From NCBI GenBank assembly GCA_963722075.1, contig CAVRJM010000001.1, positions 1,024,001-1,088,000 on the forward strand: DNA of 64,000 nucleotides, read 5' to 3'. Below are positions 10,925-14,015 of this stretch, piece by piece. This DNA comes from Candidatus Babeliales bacterium. GTDB taxonomy: Bacteria > Babelota > Babeliae > Babelales > JANWKD01. Made by a program: the position numbers and the translations under genes. Under the pieces are notes generated by a model. That model made no database searches. It saw nothing but the letters and a program-made list of their open reading frames with translations, and was not told where the DNA came from. Position 1 is the stretch's first letter; each line of letters opens with the position of its first letter.

Positions 10925-11164
10925 ATGAATAAAAAGCTTACAAAGCATGGAAATAGCTTAGCCTTGGTAATAGATAAGCCATTATTAAAGCTCCTTAAAA
11001 TTAACGAAAAAACCTTATTGGAAATATCTATTAAGGATAATACGCTTATTATAAAACCAACTACTGTAAAAAAAGCGAAGAAAAAAGAAGCCTCTATTGA
11101 TGAAATTGCCGAACAAATCATGAATAAATATGATATTACTTTTAAAAAACTTTCTAAAACGTAA
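10925..11164 (+). CDS. AbrB/MazE-family antitoxin
   Basis: KLTKHGNSLALVIDK AbrB motif; translationally coupled (TAATG) to toxin. Confidence 0.9.
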   Translation: MNKKLTKHGNSLALVIDKPLLKLLKINEKTLLEISIKDNTLIIKPTTVKKAKKKEASIDEIAEQIMNKYDITFKKLSKT

Positions 11165-11562
11165 TGGACATTTATTTTTTATCACTTCAAGAAGTCATTT
11201 TTTTGCACAAAAAAATTATGGAACGTTATGGAAATGGCTCTATGCTTATCAGAGATTTATCCCTTTTAGAATCAGCGGTTGCCCAACCTCAAGCAACCGC
11301 ATTTGGCAATTATCTTCATAATGATTTATTTGAAATGGCATCTGCGTATGCTTTTCATATTATTAAAAATCATCCTTTTATCGATGGCAATAAACGAACA
11401 GGATTACTTATTGCATTAACGTTTCTAATGCGCAATGGAGTAGAAATAACCACATCATCTAAAGATTTATATGATTTTGCTCTTGATATTGCATCTTCAA
11501 AAATAAACAAAGAAGAAATCGCTAGTTTCTTTAATAAACATTCAAAACTTATTGGTAATTAA
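11164..11562 (+). CDS. doc: Death-on-curing (Doc/Fic) toxin
   Basis: IRDLSLLESAV, HPFIDGNKRT Doc motif. Confidence 0.92.
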   Translation: MDIYFLSLQEVIFLHKKIMERYGNGSMLIRDLSLLESAVAQPQATAFGNYLHNDLFEMASAYAFHIIKNHPFIDGNKRTGLLIALTFLMRNGVEITTSSKDLYDFALDIASSKINKEEIASFFNKHSKLIGN

Positions 11563-11644: not shown

Positions 11645-11661
11645 CCCTCTTGATGCCCCAT

Positions 11662-11688
11662 GTCATTGCGAGCTCGCGAAGCAATCCA
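11662..11688 (+). repeat. REP/RPE-like palindrome, family A
   Basis: GTCATTGCGAGCTCGCGAAGCAATCCA; related copies at 12536, 23636, 23809, 34796, 45718, 61040. Confidence 0.85.
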
Positions 11689-11884
11689 TTAATAAATAAA
11701 AGTCCGAATACCTTACTTGCAAAATTAAAATTTTAATTTTATAAAATGGATCCTTCACAGTCGTTTATAATAGTATATACAACTGAATCTTCTGGAAACT
11801 GTTTACTCAAAAAAGGCCTTTTTGCTAATATAACAATAGATAGAATCTTATCTTTTTTATAATTTTATTCAAAACGGGGGTATT

Positions 11885-12202: not shown

Positions 12203-12535
12203 GCAACTTCAGTACCACTTAAGAATCAAGCAATCTAGATCACACCAATAAAATCAAATCATTTTTGAGCAAAACCATTGAACGGTCTGCAGCACATCTT
12301 CTGATATGCGAGGACCGTTCTTTTTGCAGTCACGAGATTAAATAAGAAGTGGCCACTATAGTGCATGATTCTCATAGCTGTTTACTTTGCCATAGGCTGA
12401 AGAACGACGTCTGGATGCCAAGCCGGAATGTGCGTGGATAAGCGAAATGGCCTTTTGAATTGAAAATATTGGGCATGCAATATTTTCATGCCTGGCCGGT
12501 ATTAGGCCAATAGAAAAAGGATTAGATTTTATTAC

Positions 12536-12562
12536 TGGATTGCTTCGCAAGCTCGCAACGAC
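12536..12562 (-). repeat. REP/RPE-like palindrome, family A (inverted relative to 11662)
   Basis: TGGATTGCTTCGCAAGCTCGCAACGAC. Confidence 0.85.
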
Positions 12563-12728
12563 AGGTTTTTAATTAATTAATGGATTCTATCAGATGATGT
12601 TCAAAACAACCATTTCTCATTAAATTCTTCTTTAATATCCATTTCGAACCTGTAATGGCATAAAAAATTAAAAGATATTTTAAAAACTATTGAATTTAAC
12701 ATGTCTTTTCTATTAGAATAAGAATTAG

Positions 12729-12816
12729 AAGTCGGGAGAGGTAGTTTGAAGCTTGTCTCAGTAATAACGAAAGAAATTGTTGAGAATATAGGATTAAACC
12801 TATGAATCCCCGACTT
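12729..12816 (+). ncRNA. Candidate structured cis-regulatory RNA, copy 1
   Basis: Closing stem AAGTCGGG/CCCGACTT with two internal stems; covaries with copy at 13363; follows TTGAAT..TAGAAT promoter-like site. Confidence 0.55.
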
Positions 12817-12855
12817 TTTTAATTAAAAAACCCTTAAAAAATAGGTTTTTTTATA

Positions 12856-13296
12856 ATGAAAAAAAGTTCATTATTTCTTTTTATCATATTATTACCAACA
12901 TTTCTTTGTGCAAAACGAATGGTCTATTTCAAAAATGATACCAATTTTCCTGCAGATAACTTTTTATTTATCTTTGTATGGCACAGTCCAGATGCCACGC
13001 AAGAAGAGCGTGATAAAGCGCATCATCAATTAGGCTTTATGCATTATTTTAAAGGATTTCCCAATCATATAGACCTTGATTCCCTAGTAGATACACATAC
13101 CAATAAACCAGTACAACCAGGTTATATTGTAGATCTTTTTATTAAAACCACCATTCCTTCAGGGTTAGAAACCAGAACATATCCTCCTCATAGAAAGTTT
13201 TATAAAGGAGAATTACGGCGTATTAAGCCACTAACCTATTCAGTAAAAGCATCTGATCTATATTTTGAGATTCAATTTGAACCTGTAATACCATAG
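12856..13296 (+). CDS. Exported hypothetical protein (paralog of 13488)
   Basis: Signal peptide; RMVYFKNDTNF vs RIVKFQNNTNY; IDLDSL vs VDLDNL. Confidence 0.75.
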   Translation: MKKSSLFLFIILLPTFLCAKRMVYFKNDTNFPADNFLFIFVWHSPDATQEERDKAHHQLGFMHYFKGFPNHIDLDSLVDTHTNKPVQPGYIVDLFIKTTIPSGLETRTYPPHRKFYKGELRRIKPLTYSVKASDLYFEIQFEPVIP

Positions 13297-13362
13297 CAAT
13301 TTAAAAATATTATTAAAAACCATTGAATTTAGCACTATCTTTTCTATTAGAATTATAAGTAG

Positions 13363-13452
13363 AAGTCGGAAGAGGTAGTTTGAAGCTTGCCTAAATACAG
13401 ACGAAAGAATTTATTTAGGACAGAGGATTAAAAGCCTGTGAATCTCCGACTT
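13363..13452 (+). ncRNA. Candidate structured cis-regulatory RNA, copy 2
   Basis: AAGTCGGA/TCCGACTT closing stem; conserved GAGGTAGTTTGAAGCTTG and ACGAAAGAA. Confidence 0.55.
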
Positions 13453-13487: not shown

Positions 13488-14015
13488 ATGAAAAATAAAA
13501 TAGGATTATTGGTTTTGCTGTTTATTTCATTGCCAGCAGCTGGTACTCGTATTGTTAAATTTCAAAATAACACTAATTATACTGATAAAATATTTTCTTA
13601 TTTTGCATTTTCATTTTACAAGCCGGAGAATATAAAACCCGGTACTACTATAAATCCAGATTACTCTGCAATAGAATATGGTTTTGTAAAGCGGGTTGAT
13701 TTAGATAATCTAAAAGATGATAAAACCAAGAAAGCAATTCCAGCAGGTCTTTCTGCCGATGTAAGGGTAGTAACGACACAACCTTCTAACCTTCCTCCAG
13801 AAGGTATTCCCCCCCAACCAATACCTTTAACCGGATCTCAAACTAATTTGGCACCTGGTACTTATACTATATATGAATCAAGCGATGCCATCCACTTTAG
13901 GCTGATTACTCCAACAGCACCTGCAGCTAGCACGCTCACCATCAGCAGCAAAATAAGTTATTTTGATTCTAATAACGATATAATTTCTTTATCAAGTGCT
14001 ATTTTTTCTTCATAA
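13488..14015 (+). CDS. Exported hypothetical protein (paralog of 12856)
   Basis: Signal peptide; 3' end overlaps the convergent gene by 58 nt, so the true stop may be near 13957. Confidence 0.7.
   Translation: MKNKIGLLVLLFISLPAAGTRIVKFQNNTNYTDKIFSYFAFSFYKPENIKPGTTINPDYSAIEYGFVKRVDLDNLKDDKTKKAIPAGLSADVRVVTTQPSNLPPEGIPPQPIPLTGSQTNLAPGTYTIYESSDAIHFRLITPTAPAASTLTISSKISYFDSNNDIISLSSAIFSS

Follow-up and report, generated by a model that had tools for sequence, protein, structure and literature searches.

A structured RNA family in Babelota, duplicated ahead of orphan exported genes and associated with Ku across genomes

Introduction

In a genome of Candidatus Babeliales, two similar elements of roughly 90 nt each lie between a promoter-like site and a gene for a protein that appears to be exported, which raises the question of what these elements are and whether they act on the genes behind them. 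We addressed it in a window of 64,000 nt (positions 1,024,001 to 1,088,000 of contig CAVRJM010000001.1, assembly GCA_963722075.1; genome G000 below) and in related genomes. The original prediction, made from the letters of the window, was a duplicated structured RNA with compensatory changes, matched to no known riboswitch class and put forward as a candidate new riboswitch or attenuator. Here, we report good support for a new covarying structured RNA, and we argue for another reading of its role.

Results

Two RNA copies are conserved next to strongly diverged genes

The two elements lie on the forward strand at 12729..12816 (copy 1) and 13363..13452 (copy 2), 634 nt apart from start to start, and 78/97 positions are identical between them. 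They share an 18-nt block (12738-12755 and 13372-13389) and a 9-nt block (12767-12775 and 13401-13409), so that the placement, the duplication and the identity of both blocks are borne out. Each copy is followed on the same strand by a gene: ORF1 (12856..13296), an orphan of 146 aa with a hydrophobic N-terminus that is signal-peptide-like by eye, and its paralog ORF2 (13488..14015, 175 aa). The proteins share 30% identity over 135 aa, a strong divergence against the conserved RNA, as had been described. ORF1 has no match in Pfam or NCBIfam, its relatives are confined to its own genome (1/261 genomes), an Atlas search returned nothing at 0.9 or higher, and neither of the window's two exported genes was found in any other of the 261 genomes.

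The order along the array is relic, promoter, RNA, ORF1, promoter, RNA, ORF2. The relic (12631..12662, forward strand) is the 3' end of a third paralogous ORF and the upstream limit of the duplicated unit; its region is 76% identical to 13264-13334 over 71 nt, and its translation resembles the C-terminus of ORF1. The duplication itself stands, with a start further upstream than proposed, at about 12631. The rest of the third exported-protein gene is gone. Neither RNA copy contains a start-to-stop reading frame, and G000 holds exactly two copies. One soil metagenome contig, from a run that is possibly the window's own source, spans copy 1 without differences, and a second, at copy 2, carries 6 substitutions and 1 deletion upstream with none listed inside the RNA (depth <5 for both).

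Covariation across the family supports a four-way junction

Between the two window copies, three pairs, one of them in P1 and the others in the long arm, have changed on both sides and a further two on one side, in line with the proposed compensatory changes. Both copies fold better than 200/200 shuffled sequences on the forward strand (z -4.2 and -3.6). Their single-sequence MFE structure is a rod rather than a junction, and the four-way junction therefore rests on family covariation; many other members fold by themselves to the junction. Forcing the junction in ViennaRNA gives an energy above the MFE in 24/24 members, a comparison that is uninformative for non-canonical pairs.

A first alignment of eight sequences, not fitted to the model, pairs 90.2% of 224 cells, with two-sided changes in 14/28 pairs. 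Across 24 copies with a mean identity of 57%, the model-fitted alignment pairs 92.7% of 670 cells and shows two-sided change in 26/28 pairs; fitting to the model (alignments A5 and A6) inflates these pair counts and biases them towards the structure. In a shuffle control on the 24-copy alignment 0/500 reached this level, and slid controls reach 40-57% pairing.

The fold, about 90 nt long (88-90), is a four-way junction that includes a T-loop-like hairpin and an arm ending in a GNRA loop. P1, of 10 bp, is made by the two ends of the RNA, and inside it come two purine-purine oppositions and then a U-G pair (U-A in two copies; 24/24 paired). The next hairpin has two invariant pairs and a loop that is mostly 7 nt long (17 copies, with 10 nt in six others and 6 nt in one); in our reading this loop resembles a T-loop, and one member has the canonical tRNA-type T-loop sequence. 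The long arm has 12-13 bp, a bulged A at its base and a GNRA cap in 20/24 copies, the short arm has 5 bp and a loop of mostly 6 nt, and conserved bases cluster at the junction. In copy 1, P1 pairs 12729-12739 with 12807-12816 (bulged A12737) and leads through the purine-purine mismatches and U12742-G12804 to the T-loop-like hairpin (12743-12753), the GNRA-capped long arm (12755-12787) and the 5-bp arm (12788-12803). Copy 2 takes the same four-way junction in the alignment; the outer P1 strands are 12729-12736/12809-12816 in copy 1 and 13363-13370/13445-13452 in copy 2.

Two details of the predicted structure change with this model. The last helix of copy 2 takes another register in the family alignment, with a G-G mismatch, and the two shared blocks, described as invariant and unpaired, are invariant but not unpaired: the 9-nt block is a GNRA tetraloop closed by C-G, and the 18-nt block holds the 2-bp hairpin with its 7-nt T-loop-like loop. 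A pseudoknot between the T-loop and the short-arm loop was discarded, since no Watson-Crick covariation between them was apparent by eye.

The RNA is found in 19 Babeliae genomes and has no Rfam match

Rfam 15 gave 0 matches in the window at the gathering threshold, none over the RNA body at E up to 10 and none for six homologous loci at E up to 5, in keeping with the original failure to match the RNA to a known riboswitch class. A DNA search of 41 relatives (E 1) returned mostly noise and one real match, in G014, a genome of another family, and a 15-nt pattern scan over 261 genomes of the class gave further copies. Model R1, built from eight copies that all come from genomes other than the window's, finds copy 1 at 80.1 bits and copy 2 at 63.2 bits, the next match in the window scoring 15. 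With models R1, R2 and R3, covariance searches identified 25 strong copies in 19/254 Babeliae genomes (261 minus seven that are <60% complete) from five families, so the further homologs that a functional RNA should have do exist; as each genome yields several hundred candidates and the searches score only 27 to 150 of them, diverged copies may have escaped. Copy number ranges from one to three per genome, with several copies in G000, G035, G050, G209, G210 and G244. The 25 copies include that of G121, near-identical to G014, which was left outside alignments A5 and A6 along with two partial matches at contig ends in G209.

Three variant copies add to these (L043/L257:1500-1600 and L252:1505-1620 in G210; L126 in G228), a subtype that keeps the promoter, P1 and the T-loop hairpin and has rearranged inner arms. 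Weak model matches in G064, G120, G074, G249, G068, G058, G207, G056 and G062 were discarded because they show neither the core motif nor the promoter.

A strict-pattern scan of GTDB gave 45 loci. Seven of these score 82-99 bits and belong to the family (6 titled Dependentiae/Babeliales, 1 uncultured); the other 38 score <=17.9 bits and are not members. Viral contigs yielded one chance match inside a coding sequence, 0 matches to a second pattern and no member, and a pattern scan of metagenomes (58/64 parts) gave 118 loci, none above 16.2 bits. These sequence scans suggest that, at strict-pattern stringency, the RNA is confined to the Babelota lineage; diverged relatives elsewhere are possible.

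On sequence grounds, then, both window copies are members of a new structured RNA family without an Rfam match. "New" is set against Rfam: the RNA may have been listed earlier among unpublished or supplementary motifs, for example the 224 motifs of PMC5737381 or those of PMC6429828, PMC8632094 and PMC11109978. In a literature search that left most subscription papers outside, we found no account of such an RNA in Babelota; the words riboswitch and noncoding are absent from PMC4776705. Nor did we find a regulatory-RNA study of this phylum, for which the family adds an uncatalogued RNA class.

A promoter and an RNA form the conserved cassette

A sigma-70 promoter is predicted upstream of copy 1 at 12690..12719 on the forward strand (-35 12690-12695, 18-nt spacer, -10 12714-12719) and another upstream of copy 2 at 13323..13353 (-35 13323-13328, 19-nt spacer, -10 13348-13353, same strand). 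The first matches the consensus at 9/12 positions, and a scan of the window finds 9 such sites against 8.9 expected by chance; the second, identical to the first at 39/46 positions, is absent from the scan because of its 19-nt spacer. As the window scan is only at chance level, the promoter claim rests on the family: a TTG stands at one offset (within 1 nt) in 26/27 family copies, against a per-position TTG frequency of 0.023 in G000, the sole exception being the second copy of a tandem pair in G244. The proposed promoter-like site is thus upheld by this family-wide fixed TTG and not by the window itself. About 9 nt before P1 there is a -10-like hexamer, often TG-extended.

On the other side, the 12 nt after P1 are rich in T (family sums T 193, A 78, C 35, G 18), and a U-run adjoining P1 of copy 1 (12815-12820, forward strand) is the 3' end predicted from sequence. 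A weak A/U-rich hairpin is folded over the ribosome-binding region of ORF1 (12825-12851, forward strand), with no terminator call.

Promoter and RNA are kept while the flanks turn over. Between G014 and G121, 93/94 positions of the RNA and 39/45 of the promoter are identical, as compared with 40/67 and 44/67 in the flanks, and sequence similarity is lost just before the promoter and immediately behind P1. We are confident that the family is a real, transcribed structured RNA.

Most copies do not lead a gene

A convergent gene lies opposite 14 of the 25 strong copies, with its stop within 20 nt in 7 cases, and 8 copies are followed by a same-strand ORF start within a narrow range of 28-43 nt. 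Two more run into a terminator-like hairpin and then a distant gene ~150 nt on, and one leads into a second RNA copy. By these counts, which use simple ORF calls and include a doubtful 74-aa same-strand frame at G050b, 16/25 copies are without a same-strand gene within leader distance and 9/25 are placed so that they could act as leaders. The convergent genes are unrelated (SOD, YbeY, EamA, ComEC, Fpg, MazG-like), and so are the 8 following genes (ChaB, DUF6496 twice, a small basic ORF, a kinase-like gene and three orphan exported proteins), of which a stress theme fits at most 4. Behind one RNA copy in G209 lies an exported protein (L059:951-1469) whose 44% identical homolog in the window's genome (G000:C1:1107633-1108145) has no RNA in front.

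The RNA is thus probably in the main a stand-alone molecule. With 16/25 copies leading no gene and the window's genes found nowhere else, the riboswitch reading is weak, and "riboswitch or attenuator of exported genes" is not the best description of a family whose downstream genes are unrelated and for which no ribosome-binding-site switch is predicted in the window. We nonetheless weighed a riboswitch or protein-responsive leader in which binding would stabilize P1 and so free the ribosome-binding site (ON) or, with the U-run, end transcription (OFF), the gene-less copies being orphans or sponges. The 8 closely spaced ORF starts fit such a leader, as does the pair of tandem copies that sit on a single promoter ahead of the DUF6496 gene in G244, and the conserved bases at the junction are pocket-like. 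When the 5' strand of P1 is blocked in folding, accessibility of the SD region falls in 4/8 leaders (0.73 to 0.20, 0.64 to 0.18, 0.47 to 0.10 and 0.73 to 0.27, without shuffled control), but no access switch is predicted for either window copy or for the other leaders of the remaining 4/8, and the pyrimidine-rich P1 strand pairs with any SD. The P1-formed state is, moreover, favored by 2-15 kcal/mol without a ligand, the gene-less copies are as strongly conserved as the G014/G121 comparison shows, and the downstream genes share no pathway. Among second messengers as ligands, synthases of c-di-GMP, c-di-AMP and ppGpp (GGDEF, DAC, RelA/SpoT) gave no match over the cut-off in 5 carriers each.

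Cobalamin, FMN and c-di-GMP-I riboswitches carry T-loop or GNRA docking modules. The Babelota RNA shares with these metabolite riboswitches a compact multi-helix junction, conserved junction bases, GNRA/T-loop-like modules and one tandem arrangement; it differs in that most copies are without a downstream gene, that no coherent regulon emerges, that the window holds no expression platform and that the Rfam search, down to E 10, finds no match. A cis role is accordingly a minority reading, carried mainly by the G244 tandem and the four leaders with possible anti-SD pairing, and we regard the riboswitch or leader as unlikely. Were the RNA an aptamer, it would represent a new class of riboswitch, one employed mainly in trans.

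Carrier genomes are enriched for Ku and associated genes

Ku is present in 17/19 carrier genomes vs 50/235 others. Because NHEJ tracks genome size (PMC7719229), we permuted carriers within family-by-size strata and observed 17 against 11.7 expected (p 0.0008), strata that leave genus-level kinship in the association and were used with no unrelated patchy gene as control. In the same strata an RNase HII-like gene is observed in 10 carriers vs 5.4 and DUF3175 in 9 vs 4.5, and all 19 carriers hold at least one of Ku, RNase HII-like and DUF3175. The RNA and Ku also occur apart: in 50 Ku-positive genomes no RNA copy was found, even when 45 of them were searched more deeply, and two strong carriers have no Ku, G002 (64% complete) and G203 (97% complete), the latter encoding a LigD-like ligase at a distance of 1.5 kb from its RNA. 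Ku is also missing from G210 (93% complete), where two copies of the variant subtype occur.

The RNA lies within 15 kb of ku in only 2/17 genomes. Within ~1.5 kb of it we found a LigD-type ligase (G035, G059, G203), Fpg (G203, G061, G117), an RNase HII-like gene (G243, G117, G059), DUF3175 (G243, G061) and DUF6496 (G035, G244), as well as ChaB, superoxide dismutases and RtcB, the last immediately upstream of one copy. In G000 the genes for Ku, LigD, Fpg, DUF6496, DUF3175, RtcB and the RNase HII-like protein are all present, dispersed and with none adjacent to the RNA. We take Ku/LigD, Fpg, ChaB and DUF6496 to be a stress-survival or dormancy gene set, referred to below as the kit. We found no account of these genes as a set in the literature; NHEJ in stationary phase is mentioned in PMC7719229.

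Hfq was found in 0/5 carrier genomes and CsrA in 0/5 over the cut-off, with one sub-threshold match. Since the carriers tested are without Hfq, CsrA and second-messenger synthases, a conserved, kit-linked RNA is a concrete lead on how their stress programme may be controlled. In G000, at 99% completeness, 6S RNA, Hfq, CsrA, RelA/SpoT, GGDEF and DAC were not found.

Three observations concern single genes of this neighborhood. The RNA's most frequent neighbor, in 4 genomes, is a 68-aa two-helix membrane protein (L067:1954-2160, L069:2623-2826, L119:1097-1393, L043:2570-2770; G000:C1:1343541-1343771), which belongs to no Pfam or NCBIfam family and whose Atlas clusters are hypothetical proteins in other phyla. 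The RNase HII-like gene is a second, divergent one present in 25/261 Babeliae genomes, often near Ku/LigD-kit genes (L060:1788-2462; G000:C1:1116515-1117333); its best match is TIGR00729, below the cut-off. A DUF3175 match at G000:C1:1345626-1345874 has one internal stop codon.

Discussion

How might a promoter-bearing RNA that mostly leads no gene act? We put at about even chances the reading that this is a stand-alone RNA family with its own promoter that binds a kit protein in trans instead of switching an adjacent gene. The argument from distance and orientation to neighbors is the one made for the raiA motif RNA (ModT), which looked riboswitch-like at first and was then judged to be trans-acting; it is transcribed on its own and has been linked to sporulation and stationary phase (PMC10861870). 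Covarying structure, a promoter (here a predicted one) and variable orientation to neighbors are common to both. The Babelota RNA differs from the raiA motif RNA in its length of ~90 nt, its lack of an Rfam match, its confinement to Babelota in these searches, its presence in several copies in some genomes and its link to the end-joining and stress kit.

RNA polymerase would start a few bases before P1, and P1 with the U-run would end most transcripts. The paired ends would stabilize the RNA, and docking of the T-loop onto the GNRA loop would give a compact shape that could hold a kit protein, as decoy or scaffold. A short RNA whose ends pair, whose helices keep their lengths and which combines docking loops with a conserved junction most likely offers a surface to a protein, and anatomy together with co-occurrence leaves protein binding within the kit evenly balanced between true and false. 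In the window, the promoter-RNA cassette has been duplicated together with an orphan exported gene that would be expressed by read-through, and read-through would also account for the other leaders.

Ku is the best-correlated candidate partner, with the small basic DUF6496, ChaB and DUF3175 proteins and the 68-aa membrane protein as possible alternatives. That Ku itself is the bound protein is the weakest step, and an unlikely one. In eukaryotes, Ku binds RNA (the yeast TLC1 stem-loop) in competition with DNA ends (10.1101/600197); eukaryotic Ku, unlike the bacterial case considered here, is a heterodimer, its RNA is unrelated, and Ku binding by the Babelota RNA is putative. In our literature search, no RNA partner of bacterial Ku was found. 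It is an improbable but specific idea that the RNA could be the first such partner in bacterial NHEJ, 90 nt that bind Ku (or Ku-LigD) and keep it away from DNA ends or act as its scaffold in the parasite's shift between replication in a protist host and dormancy. If Ku binding were true, RNA control of end joining would extend from eukaryotes to bacteria. More broadly, the RNA may be a missing part of stress survival in the protist-parasitic Babelota, and its 90 nt and 25 natural variants make it suited to probing, crystallization and pull-downs.

Beside kit-protein binding, the RNA could be a tRNA-like or 6S-like decoy for the ribosome, a translation factor, RNA polymerase or an RNA-repair enzyme, employed when growth stops. 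Its ends pair and its arms follow one another (terminal stem, T hairpin, capped acceptor-like arm, D-like arm) as in the YrlA/Y RNAs (PMC4201824), but the 5' Ro-binding motif given there is absent from alignment A6. The canonical T-loop sequence of one member and the RtcB gene directly upstream of one copy also point this way, against which the T stem has only 2 bp, the loop position that would pair with a D-loop varies freely and the short-arm loop lacks the GG of a D-loop. Ro60 (TROVE), whose gene accompanies YrlA/Y RNAs in the genome, usually within 4 kb, has no match in G000 (control positive 2/14), and there is no TROVE domain among 86 RNA-neighbor genes. The failure to find 6S RNA (RF00013) in G000 would leave room for a 6S-like function, yet the RNA has half the 6S length and no central bubble, and presence in 19/254 genomes is patchy for a core function. 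We therefore consider such a decoy rather improbable. Known RNAs were set aside in turn: SRP RNA has its own gene elsewhere (G000:C1:236337), the tmRNA and 36 tRNAs of G000 also lie elsewhere, 6S RNA is a hairpin of ~180 nt with a central bubble, and a small RNA dependent on Hfq or CsrA finds neither partner in the 5 carriers.

A small RNA that regulates kit mRNAs by base pairing without Hfq would accord with the own promoter and predicted terminator, with a stretch of 13-18 conserved nt towards the 5' end and with the alternative rod fold of the window copies. The family fold offers no long unpaired seed, however, loop sequences differ between members, and predicted pairing shows no preference for the starts of kit mRNAs: in G000, 10 kit gene starts rank 15 to 1384 of 1402, and three queries share no top target. 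Such a role is very unlikely. Very unlikely too is a small mobile promoter-plus-hairpin cassette without host function, or a ribozyme-bearing element, gathering in plastic regions shared with kit genes: the absence of conserved synteny, the several copies in some genomes, the sharp limits of homology around the cassette and a reverse-transcriptase relic 270 nt from one copy fit it, against the one to three copies per genome, 0 transposases among the 86 neighbors scanned, same-site orthologous copies conserved far above their flanks and, for a ribozyme, no Rfam ribozyme match.

Upstream of the array, the window holds two further features. A 36-nt palindromic repeat forms an inverted pair (11661-11696 and 12528-12563, 92% complementary) that flanks a 105-aa ORF and is matched by many unrelated metagenome contigs; the repeat resembles palindromic elements of the Rickettsia type. 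At 10925-11562, downstream of groES-groEL, lies a gene pair for a MazE-like antitoxin and a Fic/Doc toxin.
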